From assembly GCA_015233675.1 (NCBI GenBank), contig JADFXH010000001.1:140563-204562 (forward strand): DNA of 64,000 nucleotides, read 5' to 3'. The notes below the pieces were generated by a model. The model did no database searches and was not told where the DNA came from. It worked only from the letters and a program-made list of their open reading frames with translations. How positions within the stretch are numbered: position 1 is the first letter of the stretch; each line of letters opens with the position of its first letter. The translations under genes were made by a program, and so were the position numbers. This document shows, one piece after another, positions 158-16,201 of the stretch. The stretch comes from Candidatus Omnitrophota bacterium (lineage in GTDB: Bacteria > Omnitrophota > Gorgyraeia > Zapsychrales > Fredricksoniimonadaceae).

Positions 158-1507
158 TCATTTTAAATATTCAATGATTTTTTGCGCCGCGGCTTTTCCG
201 CCGGCGATGGCATCTACGACTGAACCGCCGCCCGTAACGACACTGCCGCAGCCAAATACCTTATCTATACTGGTCATGCCGCTCTGGGCATCAGCCCACA
301 AAGAGCCATCATTGTCCCATTTTAACTGAGGCAAATAATTCTTCAATAAATCATTGGGCCGCTGACCATTGGCGATGATCACCGTCTGTGCCTCTAAAAT
401 AACGGACTTGTCTTGAGACGGTTCAAGCTTTAAACCATTCTTTCCATCAACGATATCTAATTTACGGCATTTAACGCCCTGAACAAAGCCAGCGGCGTCA
501 CCTACCATCTCAAGGGCTTTTATCGAATGAATTTCTATCCCTTCTTCTCTCGATTCCTTTAGAATATCATGATCGACACCTGCCTGCTCCTCAAACCCTT
601 CGAAGATGACTTGAACCTTGCCGCCTAAACGCACGATTAGACGCGCCGCATCAAAAGCTGACTGCCCACAGCCGATAACCACCGTGTTGGGTCCACCTAT
701 CATCTGCCTTCGGGCTGCTTGCAAAGCATCTTCTTTTTTAATCGCTTGTAACCGGTACAAAAATTCCTTATCGTAAAAAACACCGCCAAGGCTGCTGCCC
801 GGCAGATCACTAAAAATTGGCAGGCCGGCTCCTGTAGCCAAGAGTATTGCTGAAAAGCCGCGCATAAATAACTCGTCAGTCATCATAGTGCGGCCAAACA
901 CTACATCCGTTTGAATTTCCACCCCCCACCTTTTTAATTGGGAAAACTGCTCATCGAGAACTTTCTGCGGCAGGCGGAATTCCGGGACCGTGTAGCGCAA
1001 GAACCCTCCGGGTTCATGCGCTGCCTCAAAAATAGTAACGCTAAAATTCATCTTAGCCAGATAATAAGAAGCGCTCATCCCTGCAGGGCCAGCGCCTATG
1101 ATGGCAACCTTTTTCCCCCCAAGAGCTAAAGACAGTTTTTCTGCTTTGGATTGGCCGAAATCAGCGGCAAAACGCTCAAGCCCGCGAATCGAAATCGGAT
1201 TCCCGTCTGATTGGAAAACGCATGCCTGCTCGCAAGGTGCCGGACAAATGCGGCCGCAAATCGCCGGAAAAGGATTCTCTTGTTTTATACGCTCAAGAGC
1301 TAAAACAGTATCCCCTTCGCGTAAAAAACGGATAAACCCCGGTATATCGATCCCAAGCGGACAGCCGGGCAAACACGCAGCCATCGCGCATTGCGGACAA
1401 CGGCGCGCTTCGTCTTGAGCTATTTTTTTGCTGAGACCCAAAGAGACTTCACCAAGGCTGCGAACCCTGGTCTCCTTGGGACGATAGGATGGGGTTGGTT
1501 TTCCCAT
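158..1507 (-). CDS. nfnB: GltD-like NADPH-dependent FAD/Fe-S oxidoreductase (large subunit of an NfnAB / SudAB-type ferredoxin:NADP oxidoreductase)
   Basis: Has N-terminal Cys clusters (CPQC..., CGRICPAPCEQAC), then the GKKVAIIGAGPAGMSASYYLA dinucleotide fold and a second GxGxxA motif. It is paired with a SudB/NfnA-like partner directly upstream. I moved the start to ATG 1507 (MGKPTPSYRPKE...); the track start at 1636 would overlap the upstream gene by 217 nt. Confidence 0.8.
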   Translation of the reverse strand: MGKPTPSYRPKETRVRSLGEVSLGLSKKIAQDEARRCPQCAMAACLPGCPLGIDIPGFIRFLREGDTVLALERIKQENPFPAICGRICPAPCEQACVFQSDGNPISIRGLERFAADFGQSKAEKLSLALGGKKVAIIGAGPAGMSASYYLAKMNFSVTIFEAAHEPGGFLRYTVPEFRLPQKVLDEQFSQLKRWGVEIQTDVVFGRTMMTDELFMRGFSAILLATGAGLPIFSDLPGSSLGGVFYDKEFLYRLQAIKKEDALQAARRQMIGGPNTVVIGCGQSAFDAARLIVRLGGKVQVIFEGFEEQAGVDHDILKESREEGIEIHSIKALEMVGDAAGFVQGVKCRKLDIVDGKNGLKLEPSQDKSVILEAQTVIIANGQRPNDLLKNYLPQLKWDNDGSLWADAQSGMTSIDKVFGCGSVVTGGGSVVDAIAGGKAAAQKIIEYLK

Positions 1508-2295
1508 GACCGCGACTCCAATGCATTCATGCGTTGTGACAAGTCCTGATAATCCACCATATGTCCGTCGAATTCCGGCCCATCGGTACACGCCAGGAGG
1601 TGTTTTCCATCTATTTTTACCCTGCAGGATCCGCACAGCCCCAAACCATTGACCATATACGGATTTAATGTCACCCTCAAGGGGATATTTTTTGCTTTAG
1701 TCATACGCGCAGCGGCCTGCATCATCTCAACCGAACCAATGGCGTAAACTCGATGGACAGTATATCTATTCAATAGTTCTTTCAAAAGATCTGAGGCCAA
1801 ACCGCGACGTTCATAGCTTCCGTCATTAGTCGTGATAAACACTTCATCACAAACCACTCTCATTTGAGACTCTAACATCAATACTTTCTTGGACTTAGCC
1901 CCGACAATACCGATAACTTTATTACCCTTTTTCTTTAAGCCGCGGCAAACAGGTAAAATTTGCGCCGCTCCAATACCAGTGGCCACACAAATAACCAAGC
2001 CATATTTGTCCATCTGAGCTGCCCTGCCCAGAGGGCCAACCATCTGATAAAGGCTCTCCCCGATAGAAAGATCGCCTAATTTTCGAGTTGCCGGCCCCAC
2101 TTCATGGACAATCAAGGAAATTACACTGCGACGCTCGTCACTGTCAACGATGGCCATAGGGATATTATGCTCACCCAAAACAGGCGTCACCATCACAAAC
2201 TGACCGGGCAAAGCACGGGACGCAATGACAGGCGCCGTGATATCGATCTTCTTGATATCCTGAGCGATGACTTGCTTATGAATAATCTTGTACAT
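1420..2295 (-). CDS. nfnA: Sulfide/dihydroorotate dehydrogenase-like FAD/NAD-binding electron-transfer subunit (NfnA/SudB-like)
   Basis: The 291-aa product has a ferredoxin-reductase-type layout with a C-terminal Cys cluster (CGSCRVKIDGKHLLACTDGPEF). It is adjacent to and overlaps the GltD-like partner. Confidence 0.75.
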   Translation of the reverse strand: MYKIIHKQVIAQDIKKIDITAPVIASRALPGQFVMVTPVLGEHNIPMAIVDSDERRSVISLIVHEVGPATRKLGDLSIGESLYQMVGPLGRAAQMDKYGLVICVATGIGAAQILPVCRGLKKKGNKVIGIVGAKSKKVLMLESQMRVVCDEVFITTNDGSYERRGLASDLLKELLNRYTVHRVYAIGSVEMMQAAARMTKAKNIPLRVTLNPYMVNGLGLCGSCRVKIDGKHLLACTDGPEFDGHMVDYQDLSQRMNALESRSWENQPHPIVPRRPGFAALVKSLWVSAKK

Positions 2296-2498: not shown

Positions 2499-4454
2499 TC
2501 ATTTAACCAAAAACTCCGTTTCTAAAATTTTATCGTCAAAACGTATGGTGACCGCCTGGGCGTCGATAGACTCCAAGCCTTTTAAAACCGGAAATATTAG
2601 ATTTTCCATATTATACATAGTCAATTTAGCTGATTGAGCCCCTAAAGCGTAATTCTCCAAAAGACGGGCCAGGCCCTCTTTTTGTTCTATATAATCAGCG
2701 ATGTCCCCGCGGATAGATTTCTCTTCACGGGTTAAATTCTCTATTGCGCCGTTAACCAACGCCGGATCATCAAGAGATTTTTCTAACAACGGAGCCTCTT
2801 TAAGTTGATTTAATTTTTTTTGGGCTAAAACTAACTCTGCTTTCTTATCAGCAATAGCCTGGTCTAATTCCTGTTTTTTATTAGCTCCATCCTGTTTATA
2901 AGTCGCGGCTATGGAAACCTGACCGGACAAATATTTATCAACCCACCCCAGAAAATCCTGGGCCCGACGGGACAATTCAGAAGTTTTCATAAGGGTCACC
3001 GAATGGAATTTTCCCCCGTTAGCTAAGCTGAATTGCTCTACCGCGTCATCAGAAACAATGGAACGCAGTGAATCATCATAGGCATCAATGGACCTTTTAA
3101 GCAACTGACGGGTGGTGGCCATTAACAAATAGTCGCCCAGAAAGCTATAGCCCGGATCCATATTAGCCCCTAACGGCAAAGAGATATAATGAATATCCAC
3201 ATGATTATATTTTTCATTTTGCAGCAGAACGACTGAATTGTGGGTCAACTTATCCAGCAGGCGCTCTGCCCCCGGACGGTCATGTATTTTTACAAAAACC
3301 AAAAGACGGGGAAAAGGATAAGTGCCCTGCATATCGACATCGGTCAAATAACCGCCGATCTCATGGCCTAAGACAGGCAAAACATCCTTTCTAATATTGA
3401 TATGGAAATGTTTTTCTACTCTATGTTTGAACTTAACGACTCCTCGGGCCAATTCAGGGTATTCTTCCAGTTTCTGTTTGGCAGATACCCAAGACTGATC
3501 AAGATCATAACAACCTCCCCAGTTATACACAATGGCACTGGCCGGCACTAATTTCAAGGTGTCGTTAGCCAGAGCCGGGCAGGCAAAAACCTTTTGCATC
3601 CCGGAGGACACAAATTTTTCATCTATTCCCACCATTATTTTATATTTACTAACCGCCCCGGACATATATGACAGGCCGCACACCGGGAAGGCCGCCGTTT
3701 GATAGCCTAAAGGTGTTAGCTTGGAATCCATTACCCCTCGCCACAAATCCGAAAACAAATTAAGATTAACAAAAACCAACCCATCGCCCGTCGGATATGC
3801 ATTTCGGCGAACAAAATTAAATGAAAGGTCTTCTTGCAGAGGCCCATGTTTATGCCGATAAACATCCACCACATCTTCTAAATGCCCTAAAGACTCTGGA
3901 GCAACGATCAACAGGTCCCTGATACGCACATAGGCTAGTCCTAAACCCTGCCTTTTAAATAAAATATGGTTGATGGTCCTCCCAAGGTATTTTTGCCCCC
4001 TTACGCTGACATCATCCCCCCAATGATGAAAAACCTGGCCTAAAAATTCCGCTATCCTCGTCGATAATGTCAACCTGAAAATGACAAAAACTTGATAGGA
4101 ACCGCCCTGCCGATAAACAGCCACCGCGGCTTCTTTATCCAACAGCTTTTTGATATAAGGATTGTCCCCAAATTTTACCAAATATTCCTGCCAACGCTTA
4201 AGATCCCCGATGTCTTTTGAAGAGAAATTATTACGATTCAAAATATCCGGCAAATCAATGGCCGCTATGTTCTTCCCAAAATCTGAACGGGTCACTTGAT
4301 TGATATGTTCTTGAACATGCGCCAACCGGGCAAAAACCAGCGGATGAGACGGCAATACCCGCTCTACTGATAATCCGGGACGTTGAAACCAGAACAAAAG
4401 TCCTGTGATCACAGCTAAAATAATGATAACCGCTAAAATAATTTTATTTTTCAT
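2499..4454 (-). CDS. Membrane-anchored protein of unknown function with C-terminal coiled coil
   Basis: The 651-aa ORF has an N-terminal TM helix (IILAVIIILAVITGLLFWF), a large soluble domain, and a heptad-like C-terminus (KKQELDQAIADKKAELVLAQKKLNQLKE). I recognise no family. Confidence 0.7.
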   Translation of the reverse strand: MKNKIILAVIIILAVITGLLFWFQRPGLSVERVLPSHPLVFARLAHVQEHINQVTRSDFGKNIAAIDLPDILNRNNFSSKDIGDLKRWQEYLVKFGDNPYIKKLLDKEAAVAVYRQGGSYQVFVIFRLTLSTRIAEFLGQVFHHWGDDVSVRGQKYLGRTINHILFKRQGLGLAYVRIRDLLIVAPESLGHLEDVVDVYRHKHGPLQEDLSFNFVRRNAYPTGDGLVFVNLNLFSDLWRGVMDSKLTPLGYQTAAFPVCGLSYMSGAVSKYKIMVGIDEKFVSSGMQKVFACPALANDTLKLVPASAIVYNWGGCYDLDQSWVSAKQKLEEYPELARGVVKFKHRVEKHFHINIRKDVLPVLGHEIGGYLTDVDMQGTYPFPRLLVFVKIHDRPGAERLLDKLTHNSVVLLQNEKYNHVDIHYISLPLGANMDPGYSFLGDYLLMATTRQLLKRSIDAYDDSLRSIVSDDAVEQFSLANGGKFHSVTLMKTSELSRRAQDFLGWVDKYLSGQVSIAATYKQDGANKKQELDQAIADKKAELVLAQKKLNQLKEAPLLEKSLDDPALVNGAIENLTREEKSIRGDIADYIEQKEGLARLLENYALGAQSAKLTMYNMENLIFPVLKGLESIDAQAVTIRFDDKILETEFLVK

Positions 4455-4479
4455 ATTTTTATAGGGGCCCTGACCCTGG

Positions 4480-4680
4480 TTCTGCTAAAAATCCGCTTCC
4501 AAATGACGCGGGGCCTGTCCTTAGTCTCAACGTTAAGGTGCTCCTCAGACGGGGGACAACCTTAACAGCAGCACCAACGGTGGTTTCCCCTAAACCTCCC
4601 CCTTGTGCAGGTGCCGTGCGCGCCTTAACATTGAGACTAAGGACACCCGCTAATCCATGTTTTCATAAAAATTCTGACAC
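4480..4680. mobile_element. Copy 1 of a ~200-bp hairpin-rich intergenic insertion element (MITE-like), flanked by 7-bp direct repeat ACCCTGG
   Basis: By-eye alignment gives about 90 percent identity to 13249-13448. Internal 22-nt inverted repeats lie at 4517-4538 and 4623-4644 (21 of 22 complementary). Direct repeats ACCCTGG lie at 4473-4479 and 4682-4688. Confidence 0.6.
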
Positions 4681-4693
4681 AACCCTGGCCCTA

Positions 4694-5458
4694 TTAAATC
4701 CTAAAAAATGTTCTCGCATTGGCGTTTACCGCAGCCAAGGTCTTTTGCGCATCCAAATTCTTTAACAGGGCCAACGCCTTCAATGTTCTTATCACATCTT
4801 TTGGTTCGGCCGCAAAAACCGTTTCTCCATCTTTATAATTGACCGGCGAATCTGTTTCAACAAGAATCCTTCCTATCGGAGCATGCGACATGGCCTTCTG
4901 TGACTCAGGACTATAGGCAACACTGGGAGATGTCGACACATAAAAACCAGCCTCAAGGATTTTATCAAGAATCTCTACAGGGCCGCTGTACCAGTGAAAT
5001 AACGCCCGCGTTACTCCGTACTCAAGGCTCAACTTCAAACAATCCCTCCATGCCCCGCGGCTATGAATGACAATAGGCAGATCAAACTCGCGGGCCAAAC
5101 CTAAATGAAAGCGGAAGGAATCTTTTTGCTTTTGACGCTCCGTTTCATCTTTGCGTACCCATTTATACCAATAATCCAAACCAGTTTCACCGATGGCACA
5201 GGCCTGTTTGATGTTCGAGCGCATAAAATCACAAGCCGTCTGCAAGGTGTCCGGTTGGACCTTCCCCGGATGCACGCCTAAAGCAGGATGAATTTTAGGC
5301 TGCCGGTATTGACCCGCTAACTTCAAAAGCCTACTCATGGAACCCAAATCAACGCTCATGGCCACTATGTCACTGACTCCCGCTTCGTGCGCCCGCATCA
5401 AGGAACCAGACAAGTCCTCTATTTCATCAATGTGGGCATGAGAATCAATGATGGTCAT
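4694..5458 (-). CDS. tatD: TatD-family metal-dependent hydrolase/DNase
   Basis: Carries MTIIDSHAHIDE at the N-terminus, HWYSG and VETDSP motifs, and has the 254-aa length typical of TatD. Confidence 0.85.
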   Translation of the reverse strand: MTIIDSHAHIDEIEDLSGSLMRAHEAGVSDIVAMSVDLGSMSRLLKLAGQYRQPKIHPALGVHPGKVQPDTLQTACDFMRSNIKQACAIGETGLDYWYKWVRKDETERQKQKDSFRFHLGLAREFDLPIVIHSRGAWRDCLKLSLEYGVTRALFHWYSGPVEILDKILEAGFYVSTSPSVAYSPESQKAMSHAPIGRILVETDSPVNYKDGETVFAAEPKDVIRTLKALALLKNLDAQKTLAAVNANARTFFRI

Positions 5459-9661: not shown

Positions 9662-9669
9662 ACCCTTTG

Positions 9670-9697
9670 ATTATGCCAAAACTACAATATAATTCAA
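9670..9697 (-). promoter_or_regulatory. Putative sigma70-type promoter for recO (TTGAAT-N16-CATAAT), about 8 nt upstream of the ATG
   Basis: On the minus strand the -35 TTGAAT is at 9697-9692 and the -10 CATAAT is at 9675-9670. This is part of a ~60-80-bp duplicate of the pilin/exeA intergenic cassette at 15339-15400. Confidence 0.4.
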
Positions 9698-10081
9698 GGT
9701 AATGTGCAACGATTTTTATTAATTTTAAGCTCCCTGATAAATCCGGGATTAACAGGATATTTTTCGTTAACAACCGCTGCCGTTAGTTACACAAATACCA
9801 CCACCAGGGATCGTAACAACTCCGGTAGAACTTATAGTAAACGAAGGCACTGTTAAAGATACAGCATTCGCACCAACAGATGCAAAAGCTGTCCATCGTT
9901 GACGCATATATATGATTTTTATTAACAATCCTATTTATGTGTCCAATAAATAAGAAAAAACGAAAAAAAACATTATTTTTTATAAACATTATCATTTTAC
10001 GGGATATATGCTTATAAACGAGAGTAAATTGAAATATTTAGAGGAGGGGAAAGGGGGACGGAATCAAGCCGGCACGGGGAT

Positions 10082-12414: not shown

Positions 12415-12849
12415 TTAAGAAGGTTGCACTAATAATGTCGTTAATGAAACTGAATTTTGCACCAAGCCAAGAGCCCAAGAAACATAAACTGTGGCTACTG
12501 TTACTGGATTAGTATTTGTACCTGCCCCGGTATAAACAGTCGTTACATAAGGCGACCAAGTTGTGACCGTGTAAAGGATAACTTGCCTGCTATAGTTTGA
12601 AAAAGCTCCCGTTAGAGGGGCAAGCCCTGTAGGGAAAGTCGTAGTGTTAATATTCGCATAAGCAGTATTTTTAACGGCCTCCATCTGTTCTTGGGCTAAA
12701 TTCAGGGCAACGGATTGTCCTTCGACGGATTTGTCCGCATATAAGCCGCTAGACACGGCATTGACAACGCCCACCACTCCCAAAACAACCAAGACGGTTG
12801 ACAATAATATTTCTATTAACGTAAAACCTTTTTTATCAAAACAGTTCAA
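12415..12849 (-). CDS. Prepilin-type minor pilin (PilV-like)
   Basis: Carries MNCFDKKG|FTLIEILLSTVLVVLGVVGVV, an N-terminal cleavage/methylation motif. The product is 144 aa. It has an ATGA overlap with the upstream gene. Confidence 0.7.
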   Translation of the reverse strand: MNCFDKKGFTLIEILLSTVLVVLGVVGVVNAVSSGLYADKSVEGQSVALNLAQEQMEAVKNTAYANINTTTFPTGLAPLTGAFSNYSRQVILYTVTTWSPYVTTVYTGAGTNTNPVTVATVYVSWALGLVQNSVSLTTLLVQPS

Positions 12850-13223
12850 GAAGACGGCCTTTCTTTTTCTTTGGAAACGACCCGGGAAGAAGGCGGAGAC
12901 ACTTCATCGCCGGCAACCGGAAGCCCCAGCTGGGCGCGTTTAGCATCCATAGCTTTTTTATGTTCTTCAAACATGGCCCTTATTTTTAGCCTCAAATCCC
13001 TGACCTTTTGCATTTCCTCTTTCATTTGCTCACGCAATGATTCATCTTCTTCACGGAAATGTTCTATCATTGCCCTTAATTCCCCAAGTTTCTGTTTTCT
13101 GGCTTCCATGCCCGTCGAATTCTGCACTGGTTGCCCCGTGGCCGGCGTCCCTTGAGCATGAGCCTTGCCAGAAAAACCGCTGATTAAACATGCCCCTAAA
13201 ACCATTACCCATAATTTTCTCAT
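12846..13223 (-). CDS. Secreted helical/coiled-coil protein of unknown function
   Basis: The start is moved to ATG 13223 (MRKLWVMVLGACLISGFSGKAHA signal peptide), with GGAGGA 6 nt upstream. The mature part is charged and helical (ELRAMIEHFREEDESLREQMKEEMQKVRDLRLKIRAMFEEHKK). Confidence 0.65.
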   Translation of the reverse strand: MRKLWVMVLGACLISGFSGKAHAQGTPATGQPVQNSTGMEARKQKLGELRAMIEHFREEDESLREQMKEEMQKVRDLRLKIRAMFEEHKKAMDAKRAQLGLPVAGDEVSPPSSRVVSKEKERPSS

Positions 13224-13248
13224 CGTTTCCTCCTCGCCTATCAAATGG

Positions 13249-13448
13249 TTCTGTCAAAATTCCGCTTCTAGATGACGCGGGTCCTGTCCTTAGTCTCAAC
13301 GTTAAGGTGCTCCTCAGGCGGAGGCAACCTTAACAGCAGCACCAACGGTGGTTTTCCCTAAACCGCCCCCTTGAGCAGGTGCCGTGCGCGCCATAACATT
13401 GAGACTAACGACACCCGCTAATCCATGTTTTCATAAAACTTTTGACAC
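13249..13448. mobile_element. Copy 2 of the ~200-bp hairpin-rich insertion element, flanked by 11-bp direct repeat CCTATCAAATG
   Basis: About 90 percent identical to 4480-4680 and in the same orientation. Direct repeats lie at 13237-13247 and 13451-13461; the right one overlaps the pilin stop codon. The internal inverted repeats are at 13286-13307 and 13391-13412 (19 of 22 complementary). Confidence 0.65.
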
Positions 13449-13454
13449 TACCTA

Positions 13455-15341
13455 TCAAATGCATACATTGCTTGAACAATTGTTGCTCAGACAATCTGTG
13501 GAAGCATTACATCCATACCCTGATAAGCCAGCAGAGCATCCCCAAGAAGAACAAATGGTGTTTGGGCTTGCACAGTCTGCGCCAGTATCACAATTATCTC
13601 CCATACCGCCAGTATTACATGTCCCCGTATAAGCATTACAAATGGGATACCCAATTGGACAGTCTGACGGACTACTACAGGAAGCCTGCAGAGGGTTAGC
13701 CGTGCACCCAATTCCCCAAGCACAATTGGGATATGCACTTGAACAGTCTGAGCTAGAACTACACCCCACCCCCTGTCCGCCAGTACTACATTGTCCATTA
13801 CTATTACAAAAATATCCGATTGGACAGTTTGCCGAACTTGTACACATGGCCCCCTGAGCGATTGCAGAGCATGTACCATTACAATATCCGCTTACACAGT
13901 CTGAGGGAGCAGAACACTCTGCCCCTGCCCCGCCGGCACTGCATGTACCCGTCGTACTGGAACAAATATGGGCTCCGGTTGTGCTTGCACAATCTGAGTT
14001 GCTGCTACAGGTCCCCCCATTAACAACACATACAAAAAAACTATTGCTACAAGTATAAGGAGATATACAGTCTGCGTTATTAAAACAGCCAACCCCCGGC
14101 TTGCCACTACTACAACTCGAAAAAGTATTACAAATGTATCCGATGGGACAGTTTGCGCTACTAAAGCACTGACTCCCCGCACCATCAGTAGTGCATACAC
14201 CATTAGAACAATATGGAGCTGCGATTAAACAGTCTGCATTACTATTACATCCAACACCCGGAGCACCAGTACTGCACATAGGCCAATAAAACGCTCTACA
14301 AATTGGAACGCCGCTTGGACAGGTTGCTCCAAAACAATCAGCCCCTTGAGGGTCAGAAGTACATTCATTCCAAACACAATACAATCCGCTTGCACAGTCT
14401 GCGGCAGAAGAACACGGGACTCCCACCCCGCCGGTACTGCATCCAAAAGTTTGAGAAGAACAAATAGGAGCTATGCTCGAACAGTCTGCGTTGCTGTTAC
14501 AGCCGACATCCGGACCGCAATAGCCCGTGCCGCATGTACTTCCGCACGTATCATCCCCGCAAGTTTTAGCACCACAACTATGGCTGCAACAGATGCCCGC
14601 ATAACAGCTCATGCCGTTTGGACAAACCGTACCACAAGCACCGCAGTTTTGAGTGTCGTTACTTAGGTTTGTGCTAGTCCCATTGCACCCTGTTTGGCCA
14701 CTAGCGCAGCAGGTCCCATTGATACAGCTCTGCCCGGCACTACAGACAGCAAGGCTGGTACCGCAAGCGCTGTTATTTGCGCTCACATCAGTGCAGGCCC
14801 CACTCACACAGCGCCGGCCGCCTGAACATCCGCCGCAAGCGTCTGTTCCTGTCCCTCCTGCCGCGCCTCCTCTAGGCGAAGAGGTTGCGCTAACATTACA
14901 GCCGGTACCGTTAGTTACGCAAATGGCATTATTAGCCGCAGTCACGACACCAGAACTACTATCAGTTGACACTGTTCCACTGCCCCCGGGGCCTTTAGAA
15001 TAAATAACGTAATATTGACCGGAAAGCTGGTAGCCATATTCCGTAGTATTGCCCGCGACAAAAGGATCGTATAAAGCATGCCTTAAGACCTGAGGCGTTG
15101 CCGCCGCTAAAACAGAAGAACCCAATGAGGCGCTCGAAGTAGGATAGGCATGCGGATTGGAATTTAAATAATAAGATGTGACTGCGGCCTGCAATGTTTT
15201 AAGCTCAGCTTCGACCAAAGAGGTCCTTGCCATATTCTGGATGCCTTTGAAACTGGGCAGCCTGACGCTGATCATAAGAACCACAACACCAAGAACAACA
15301 AGCAATTCCACTATGGTGAAGGCTTTATTTTGTACAATCAT
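13455..15341 (-). CDS. Type IV pilin-like protein with very large cysteine-rich repeat extension
   Basis: It has a class III signal (MIVQNKA|FTIVELLVVLGVVVLMI) and a pilin-like first ~135 aa. About 480 aa follow, carrying about 75 Cys in tandem modules of the form C-x3-4-[SA]-[DN]-C-x3-7-C-x4-8-C. Confidence 0.8.
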   Translation of the reverse strand: MIVQNKAFTIVELLVVLGVVVLMISVRLPSFKGIQNMARTSLVEAELKTLQAAVTSYYLNSNPHAYPTSSASLGSSVLAAATPQVLRHALYDPFVAGNTTEYGYQLSGQYYVIYSKGPGGSGTVSTDSSSGVVTAANNAICVTNGTGCNVSATSSPRGGAAGGTGTDACGGCSGGRRCVSGACTDVSANNSACGTSLAVCSAGQSCINGTCCASGQTGCNGTSTNLSNDTQNCGACGTVCPNGMSCYAGICCSHSCGAKTCGDDTCGSTCGTGYCGPDVGCNSNADCSSIAPICSSQTFGCSTGGVGVPCSSAADCASGLYCVWNECTSDPQGADCFGATCPSGVPICRAFYWPMCSTGAPGVGCNSNADCLIAAPYCSNGVCTTDGAGSQCFSSANCPIGYICNTFSSCSSGKPGVGCFNNADCISPYTCSNSFFVCVVNGGTCSSNSDCASTTGAHICSSTTGTCSAGGAGAECSAPSDCVSGYCNGTCSAIAQGAMCTSSANCPIGYFCNSNGQCSTGGQGVGCSSSSDCSSAYPNCAWGIGCTANPLQASCSSPSDCPIGYPICNAYTGTCNTGGMGDNCDTGADCASPNTICSSWGCSAGLSGYGCNASTDCLSNNCSSNVCI

Positions 15342-15347
15342 AACTTG

Positions 15348-15375
15348 ATTATGTCAAATTTATGATATAATTCAA
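15348..15375 (-). promoter_or_regulatory. Putative promoter of the Cys-rich pilin gene (TTGAAT-N16-CATAAT), 6 nt upstream of the ATG (near-leaderless)
   Basis: On the minus strand the -35 is at 15375-15370 and the -10 is at 15353-15348. The pilin ATG is at 15341 and has no Shine-Dalgarno sequence. Confidence 0.4.
15363..15371 (+). promoter_or_regulatory. Putative extended -10 promoter (TGaTATAAT) for the exeA-like gene, 8 nt upstream of its ATG
   Basis: TGATATAAT is read directly at 15363-15371. The exeA-like ATG is at 15380. It overlaps the divergent pilin promoter within a 38-nt intergenic region. Confidence 0.4.
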
Positions 15376-15379
15376 GGTA

Positions 15380-16201
15380 ATGTACAAGGATTTTTATAAG
15401 TTCAAGGAACACCCTTTTAACATTACCTCCGACCCTGATTTCTTTTTCTCGTCTACGCGCCACGAAGAGGCCTTCAATCATCTGGCCTACGGGATTGGCT
15501 CGCGAAAAGGCATTATTGTCATCACCGGTGAAATAGGCACGGGCAAAACTACCCTTTGCCGCACCCTGCTTAACCGTTTGGATAAAACAGTTAAAACCGC
15601 GCTGATCCTAAACCCCAATTTTTCGGACCTGCAGCTGCTGCAATTGATCATCAACGATTTGGATATCCGCTATACTAAAAAAACTAAACTTGACCTGGTA
15701 GGAGCCATCTCCCTGTTTTTACTTGAAGAGTCCGCCAAAGGGCACAATGTGGCCGTTATCATCGACGAATGCCAAAACCTCAACATCCGCCAGTTGGAAC
15801 AAATCCGGCTATTATCCAATCTTGAAACTGAAAAGGAAAAGCTGCTGCAAATTATTTTAGTCGGCCAGCCGGAATTGGGCGAAAAACTTAAAAACCCTGC
15901 CCTTCGTCAACTGACCCAGCGGGTAACCGTGCGCTACCATATCCTCCCTTTGCAAAAACATGAGATTGAGAATTATATCTATCACCGCTTGAAAATTGCC
16001 GGAGGTGCGCCTCAACTTCATTTTACACCGCAGGCTATTGACGCTATTTTTAACGTCTCCCAAGGCATCCCCCGCGTCATCAATATCCTCTGCGACCGCG
16101 CCCTCTTGGCCGGATTCTCCAGGGAGACCTTCACCATTGACCATTCCTTAATCCAGGAAAGCGCAAAGGAGACACAGTTTTCTTATGAGTATCATTCATG
16201 A
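15380..16201 (+). CDS. exeA: ExeA/GspA/MshM-family AAA ATPase
   Basis: Carries FFFSSTRHEEAFNHLAYGI..., GIIVITGEIGTGKTTLCR (Walker A) and VIIDECQNL (Walker B). The 273-aa length is typical of ExeA-like secretin-assembly ATPases. Confidence 0.75.
   Translation: MYKDFYKFKEHPFNITSDPDFFFSSTRHEEAFNHLAYGIGSRKGIIVITGEIGTGKTTLCRTLLNRLDKTVKTALILNPNFSDLQLLQLIINDLDIRYTKKTKLDLVGAISLFLLEESAKGHNVAVIIDECQNLNIRQLEQIRLLSNLETEKEKLLQIILVGQPELGEKLKNPALRQLTQRVTVRYHILPLQKHEIENYIYHRLKIAGGAPQLHFTPQAIDAIFNVSQGIPRVINILCDRALLAGFSRETFTIDHSLIQESAKETQFSYEYHS

Follow-up and report, generated by a model that had tools for sequence, protein, structure and literature searches.

The pilin-like locus and its intergenic element

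We analysed a 64,000-nucleotide (64-kb) stretch of the genome of a Candidatus Omnitrophota bacterium (contig JADFXH010000001.1, positions 140,563 to 204,562 of the forward strand), hereafter referred to as the window. A non-coding element is located at 13247-13450 of the window, between a gene for a pilin-like protein and the next gene of the same locus. This element is designated copy 2; copy 1, which is 92% identical and has the same orientation, occupies positions 4478-4682. Copy 2 is best explained as a recently inserted, non-autonomous element with inverted-repeat arms and a 10-bp target-site duplication. We consider it probable that it carries a 142-nt structured RNA as its cargo and serves as a portable cis-acting module co-transcribed with the operon. 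The features of the two sites are as follows:

12846-13223, minus strand: downstream gene, coding for a protein of 125 amino acids (aa) whose N-terminus is signal-peptide-like and which has a coiled-coil-like region; the ribosome-binding site (RBS) of the gene, GGAGGA, is at 13228-13233
13237-13246: 10-bp direct repeat CCTATCAAAT, left copy, separating the element from the RBS of the 125-aa gene on the minus strand
13247-13276, minus strand: 3' arm in RNA sense (...GAAGCGGAAUUUUGACAGAACC), inverted-repeat partner of the 5' arm, pairing with 13419-13450 in the predicted fold
13277-13418, minus strand: conserved 142-nt core with a long closing stem around a putative multiloop; blocks GGCGCGCACGG, AGGGAAAACCACC and GAGGAGCACCUUAAC
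13419-13450, minus strand: 5' arm in RNA sense (UAGUGUCAAAAGUUUUAUGAAAACAUGGAUUA)
13451-13460: right copy of CCTATCAAAT, in which the pilin-like gene has its last Ile codon and its stop codon
13455-15341, minus strand: upstream gene, coding for a 628-aa Cys-rich protein with a pilin-like N-terminus (KAFTIVELLVVLGVVV) and no Pfam match
15375-15348, minus strand: promoter-like site 5' of the 628-aa pilin-like gene
after the 125-aa gene, minus strand: minor-pilin-like open reading frames (ORFs) of 144 aa (N_methyl), 373 aa and 401 aa (LamG)
4478-4682, minus strand: copy 1 of the element, between the TatD (4694-5458) and DUF3352 (2499-4454) genes
4468-4477 and 4683-4692: 10-bp repeats flanking copy 1, CCCTGACCCT and CCCTGGCCCT, identical at 9/10 positions (CCCTGRCCCT)

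All genes of the locus are on the minus strand, and the gap between the 628-aa and 125-aa ORFs is 225 bp. Prepilin N-methylation, PilX_N and LamG signatures are found among the 144-, 373- and 401-aa products.

Ends of the element and the target-site duplication

The 11-mer CCTATCAAATG has exactly two occurrences in the window, at 13237-13247 and 13451-13461 of the plus strand, one on either side of the unit. The first-pass annotation of this DNA had described this duplication together with the pilin-like stop codon in its right copy (TCA on the plus strand, 13455-13457), and we confirm both. The ends of the unit were set by GGTTCTG...GACAC[A/T]A (plus strand), which is common to copies 1 and 2 and to two further copies, L067 and L050, from the family search described below. 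With these shared ends copy 2 spans 204 bp, and its repeat is therefore 10 bp rather than 11: the eleventh base of CCTATCAAATG, a G, is the unit's own first base on the left, while on the right it is the start of the last Cys codon of the pilin-like gene. The repeat does not belong to the conserved unit, as the flanks of copy 1, L067 and L050 are different.

Copy 1 and copy 2 both have duplications of 10 bp at consistent boundaries. The earlier annotation had taken their lengths to be 11 and 6-7 bp and had seen in this a hint of a non-DDE mechanism, a difficulty that disappears here, since it arose from requiring exact matches. A 10-bp duplication at both copies is the expected product of one cut-and-paste or copy-and-paste transposase. 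The corresponding repeats match at 6/10 positions in L067 and 2/10 in L050. When random window positions 204 bp apart were taken and the 10 nt on either side compared, the chance of a 10/10 match was 3.9e-5 and that of at least 9/10 was 1.2e-4. Coincidence is thus a poor account of the repeats; a shuffle-based figure, which tolerates one mismatch at any place in the window, has no bearing on adjacency.

Deletion of the unit and one repeat in silico gives ...TGC ATT TGA TAGGCGAGGAGGAAACG ATG, and the uninterrupted junction between the pilin-like and 125-aa genes is reconstructed as ...TGCATTTGATAGGCGAGGAGGAAACGATG. The 17-nt spacer with GGAGGA obtained in this way agrees with the one proposed earlier and is a normal tight intercistronic spacer.

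The arm sequences of the element are GGTTCTGTCAAAA and TTTTGACACTA. On the minus strand its termini form inverted repeats in which GGUAGUGUCAAAA... pairs with ...UUUUGACAGAACC at 11/13 positions. Arms of about 30 nt are restricted to four copies (copy 1, copy 2, L067 and L050), all of which start 1-11 nt after a stop codon and have at most AGG and A in common in their flanks. Copies 1 and 2 have 88% identity in their arms, compared to about 45% for the flanks of same-genome family copies elsewhere. The size of the element is 204-205 bp, and the ORFs running across it are short and spurious only.

Three minor observations concern the arms. The sequence TTTTGACAGAAC, which ends the 3' arm of the window element, is also present 10-21 nt past the core in L015, L028, L031, L043 and L107; these copies are unrelated and have no 5' arm, and TTTTGACAGAAC resembles GACAGGACC of the core. 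A promoter-like TTGACA-16-TACATT (10/12) at 13442-13469 (plus strand) extends from the right arm into the flank, is directed antisense into the pilin-like gene and is not conserved in copy 1 or L067. A sigma-70 promoter based on the TTGACA of the arm was considered and rejected, as there is no usable -10 element at the right sense-strand spacing in copy 2, L015, L043 or L107.

Occupied and empty sites in related genomes

Relatives with a GspA-like ATPase 88-89% identical to that of the window keep its gene order. In three related lineages (L002, L005 and L008) the TatD/DUF3352 junction contains no element; the two genes are separated there by 1, 1 and 24 nt, and on either side the coding sequences can be aligned to those of the window. 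[quoted passage not shown] The window accounts for two of the three element positions located in this clade and L005 for the third; none of the three is common to two genomes. Judging from the duplications and the empty junction of copy 1, insertion of the element is well supported.

The ATPase-matched relatives lack the pilin-like cassette altogether and have recO immediately next to the ATPase gene. For the 373-aa LamG pseudopilin, identity to the best homologues does not exceed 46%, and the clusters to which these homologues belong include neither the 125-aa gene nor the element.

A family of structured RNAs in Omnitrophota

The distant copy in L005 revealed which blocks of the unit are conserved. 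A degenerate two-block pattern built from these blocks matched all three known copies and was used for the family search. It found 99 metagenome loci and 35 loci in Omnitrophota metagenome-assembled genomes (MAGs), with 5-9 loci per MAG, giving at least 117 distinct copies. All of them come from Omnitrophota MAGs or environmental metagenome contigs; a few of the family-bearing MAG records are titled Planctomycetales. The portion conserved across the family is the core of about 142 nt. Two of its blocks are required by the pattern and are invariant by construction, while the other blocks and the stem are independent of it. A covariance model derived from the family copies retrieved almost nothing beyond the pattern matches, and only the two copies in the window.

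An exact 24-mer of the window subtype had 0 matches in the genome scan. The family pattern had no matches in viral contigs, and blastn against phage records returned nothing either; eight viral-contig matches to a pattern of the arms were discarded as unrelated chance hits. With Rfam 15 at the gathering score the window yields tRNA only, and permissive searches gave nothing credible at E ≤ 10 around copy 2, nor at E ≤ 1 in five loci of the commonest subtype. No description of the family was found in the literature searched by taxon, topic and sequence strings. The core family is thus apparently an undescribed structured RNA.

Two further short repeat families, GATTGCTTCG...CTCGCAATGACA and GGATTCCCGCTTTCGCGGGAATGAC, adjoin several copies (L005, L025, L034, L036, L068 and L086; L014, L021 and L046). 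Intergenic regions of this sort seem to collect several kinds of repeats. In the 1.7-kb contig L022, two oppositely oriented copies (477-631, minus strand, and 1454-1609, plus strand) flank an ORF of about 270 codons.

RNA structure and the folded strand

The core is closed by a stem which begins with GCGGG/CCCGC and continues for about 20 bp. In this outer stem 97.5% of the alignment cells are paired, compared to 30-54% in slid controls, and 111 cells carry double changes as against 19 in shuffles. On the strand matching the minus strand of the window, G·U pairs (58) far exceed A·C combinations (17). The covariance model (R1) scores 115 bits for copy 2 (E 8e-32) and 111 bits for the other window copy on the minus strand, while the plus strand gives 20 and 23 bits. 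Both the G·U excess and the model scores indicate that the folded strand is the sense strand of the flanking genes. The interior contains strongly conserved unpaired blocks (GGCGGACGGUGAC, AGGGAAACCACC and UUAGGAGCACC) with several subtype variants; only the closing stem is established as structure.

In five loci (L026, L033, L039, L068 and L124) the 5' strand of the stem is swapped for another conserved sequence (...AATGCCGAGCAAGAAATAGGGAATATGG), which means that the closing stem cannot form there as it does elsewhere in the family.

No terminator-like site was found on the minus strand in or after the element, and a T-run after the stem is lacking both in the window copies and in the family consensus. 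The element had been described as splitting the pilin operon. It does so physically, although probably not transcriptionally, given the lack of a terminator.

Gene context of the family

An RBS and a start codon on the same strand within 60 nt downstream were found for 41/88 copies, while the reverse control gave 3/92. Start codons most often lie 10-29 nt past the core end (median 21 nt). The nearest upstream ORF is co-directional in 83/109 copies, and the core follows its stop codon at a median distance of 22 nt. Junctions occupied by the family include L7/L12 to RpoB (rplL-rpoB, two family members), HisS to AspS and HisB to HisH. Other downstream genes include dnaJ, phosphoglycerate mutases (apgM), PFK, pyrH, ssb and epimerases. 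Pfam matches of the 80 downstream proteins span 107 families, and those of the 73 upstream proteins span 81; there is no common theme downstream. Several junctions recur in divergent genomes, e.g., upstream of aspS, rpoB, dnaJ and apgM, so many copies must be old and inherited in place.

At the HisB-HisH junction of two different genomes (L088, about 1385-1600, and L062, about 3740-3925), ATTAT[T/A]GATTA flanks the element on either side, once within the end of hisB and once within the initial codons of hisH. Chance, or an old duplication that coding constraint has preserved, may account for it.

Comparison with known elements

The window copies have the general properties of MITEs: inverted repeats, a duplication of constant length (10 bp in both), small size, lack of an ORF and, for copy 1, an empty site. 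Among known MITEs the closest are ERIC and Correia elements. ERIC are small (about 127 bp) non-coding imperfect palindromes found in transcribed intergenic regions of operons, where they form a long RNA stem-loop and are reported to alter the stability of the flanking mRNA; like the element described here, they have terminal inverted repeats and target duplications and are conserved over a large taxon at low to moderate copy number (PMC3184786). ERIC duplicate TA, while our element duplicates 10 bp, and the Omnitrophota family differs in its 142-nt core with a complex multiloop, in strong sense bias and tight RBS spacing; besides, most of its copies have neither arms nor duplications. The Correia elements of Neisseria (CREE/NEMIS) are MITEs of 100-160 bp which lie beside genes, are co-transcribed with them and influence their expression, have hairpin-forming inverted repeats and vary in presence between strains (PMC3184786). 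They are distinguished by TA duplication, an IHF site, promoters and hundreds of copies, whereas the present element has a 10-bp duplication, 5-9 copies per MAG by the strict pattern and no apparent functional promoter, and belongs to another phylum. The window copies are not members of ERIC or Correia; the distinction is drawn from features (10-bp duplication instead of TA, large multi-block core, sense bias, low copy number) rather than from direct sequence comparison with the consensus of either group.

REP, BIME and REPIN sequences are likewise palindromic intergenic repeats, often placed between co-transcribed genes near stop codons and acting on mRNA. REPs measure 20-40 nt, number more than 100 copies, are associated with RAYT transposases and produce no target duplication (PMC2817692, PMC3337134); our unit is 5-10 times longer and has a duplication. 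PATE derived from IS200/IS605 also differ, as they lie beside a fixed tetra- or pentanucleotide and have no duplication, while the arm-bearing copies have the 10-bp duplication in the window and flanks sharing at most AGG and A.

Structured RNAs of the sense strand located between cistrons are known from other bacteria. The rplL-rpoB intercistronic region of E. coli contains an RNase III site and an attenuator, and the EAR antitermination RNA is located inside eps operons. Our family resembles them in strand and position, and two of its members are located at the rplL-rpoB junction itself. However, those RNAs are confined to a single locus, while the Omnitrophota family reuses one sequence at dozens of unrelated junctions and is mobile in one lineage.

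Alternative explanations

The first-pass annotation regarded the element essentially as a disruptive insert, which corresponds to a purely selfish MITE: a decayed insertion sequence (IS) that landed in the operon by chance and whose sequence is functionless. The part of this description that concerns insertion and duplication stood. The inverted-repeat arms, the 10-bp duplication, the lack of an ORF, the empty site of copy 1 and the long hairpin, which is typical of MITEs (PMC3184786), are all consistent with it. It is incomplete, though, as the core belongs to a conserved, sense-oriented family of structured RNAs. A functionless sequence would hardly be kept at the same junctions in divergent genomes (aspS, rpoB, dnaJ, apgM), have such a biased orientation relative to the downstream gene, conserve its unpaired blocks and covary in its stem with a strand-specific G·U excess; moreover, most copies have neither arms nor flanking repeats. 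We find a purely selfish element distinctly unlikely. The opposite possibility, a non-mobile cis-regulatory leader (a riboswitch or a protein-binding RNA) whose two copies in the window are products of local duplication or gene conversion and whose flanking repeats are incidental, also seems unlikely. It agrees with low copy number, conserved positions at some junctions, the lack of a family-wide excess of flanking repeats and the lack of a transposase in the window. Against it stand two independent copies with 10-bp repeats at identical unit ends (10/10 and 9/10), the difference between these repeats, which were thus not copied along with the element, and the absence of copy 1 from L002, L005 and L008, which have 1-24 nt between the two genes. 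As for a classical, pathway-specific riboswitch, the diversity of the downstream genes (AspRS, RpoB, DnaJ, PFK, phosphoglycerate mutases, epimerases), for which no shared pathway was found, led us to reject it.

A very stable hairpin directly past the stop codon of a structural gene, probably an abundant one, could also point to an intrinsic terminator or attenuator that ends pilin transcription and leaves the downstream genes as a separate unit, and junctions of the rplL-rpoB type are classical attenuation sites in E. coli. An intrinsic terminator was rejected for want of a T-run, and in most copies an RBS and start codon follow 10-30 nt past the stem, leaving no space for a new promoter; termination at the element is very improbable. 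A stand-alone small RNA gene acting in trans would explain why a conserved structured unit of about 150 nt is present in several copies per genome. Since no promoter at a fixed distance and no terminator were found, and the unit is wedged in the sense direction between a stop codon and the next RBS, we regard this explanation as barely plausible.

The mobile, co-transcribed RNA module remains our preferred reading, and several observations weigh against it. No transposase or full-length IS with these ends was found, and the window yielded no copies of the element besides the two described and no further match to the arms. No empty site was found for copy 2, the nearest homologous pilus clusters being about 45% identical and differently organised. 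Arms are present in only four family copies, and flanking direct repeats across 90 family copies are no commoner than chance. The interior multiloop fold is inconsistent, as a column-pair scan, single-sequence folds and per-subtype alifold disagree. The family is not strictly intercistronic, a divergent upstream gene being present in 24/109 copies. Finally, we infer co-transcription and any processing. The family-wide repeat search, which matched the null expectation, led us to reject the idea that all family copies are recent insertions. Together with the restriction of the arms to four copies, this means that mobility is shown only for the arm-bearing sub-lineage and is not to be generalised to all family copies.

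Possible role of the element

We propose that a DDE-type transposase acting in trans pasted the element downstream of the pilin-like stop codon, ahead of the RBS of the gene that follows; in the arm-bearing lineage such a transposase probably moves the RNA module. The arms would have a double role, as inverted repeats in DNA and as an outer helix in RNA. The element would be transcribed within the operon mRNA and may, as RNA, act in cis on the cistron downstream of it. What was described as a split operon would then be better interpreted as the place that a co-transcribed RNA module normally takes.

We favour action as a processing or stability structure, or as a translation-initiation platform, for three reasons: the element is spaced tightly from the downstream RBS and loosely from the upstream stop codon, its closing stem has a length sufficient for a double-strand RNase substrate, and at many junctions the upstream gene is presumably highly expressed and the downstream one less so (L7/L12 to RpoB; here, the pilin-like protein to minor components). 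Either action would uncouple the abundant pilin-like protein from the minor components encoded downstream. This suggests that the first and the downstream genes of the pilin-like locus could differ in expression from one transcript. A switch under the control of a global signal or of a protein is also conceivable. A bolder possibility, which we consider doubtful, is that the core represents a new class of functional RNA, either a ligand- or protein-responsive switch or a self-processing RNA, which controls unrelated housekeeping operons and spreads as a MITE-borne cassette. If true, such a regulatory cassette would rewire gene control by transposition.

Omnitrophota are uncultured and, to our knowledge, nothing is known of their gene control at the RNA level. 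The present analysis defines a covarying RNA family of more than 100 members, reused ahead of unrelated essential genes, supplies a covariance model for it and gives predictions for metatranscriptomes. The window copies provide a concrete case of an RNA module with transposon ends and a target duplication, which makes the movement of regulatory RNA parts from operon to operon testable. The main interest of the family lies in this link to mobility and in the RNA itself, which is apparently undescribed.

Other repeats at the pilin-like locus

A 58-nt direct repeat (84% identity) at 9667-9724 and 15345-15402 corresponds to a duplicated intergenic region of recO and the GspA-like ATPase gene. L001, L005 and L008 have this region once only, with recO adjoining the ATPase gene. 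The two repeats enclose the pilin-like cassette of about 5.6 kb (about 9.7-15.35 kb), and the pilin-like ORF and recO both start with MIV. The cassette has the look of an insertion or rearrangement in which the promoter and start of recO became duplicated.

A fragment of the pilin-like gene (ICVTNG[S/T]GC, 85% DNA identity, 9770-9796 compared to 14898-14924) is found beside recO within an ORF at 9767-9928 (minus strand), which suggests a pilin remnant or a silent partial copy. The pilin-like gene itself contains at least five Cys-rich internal repeats located 162-324 nt apart (13548-14514).

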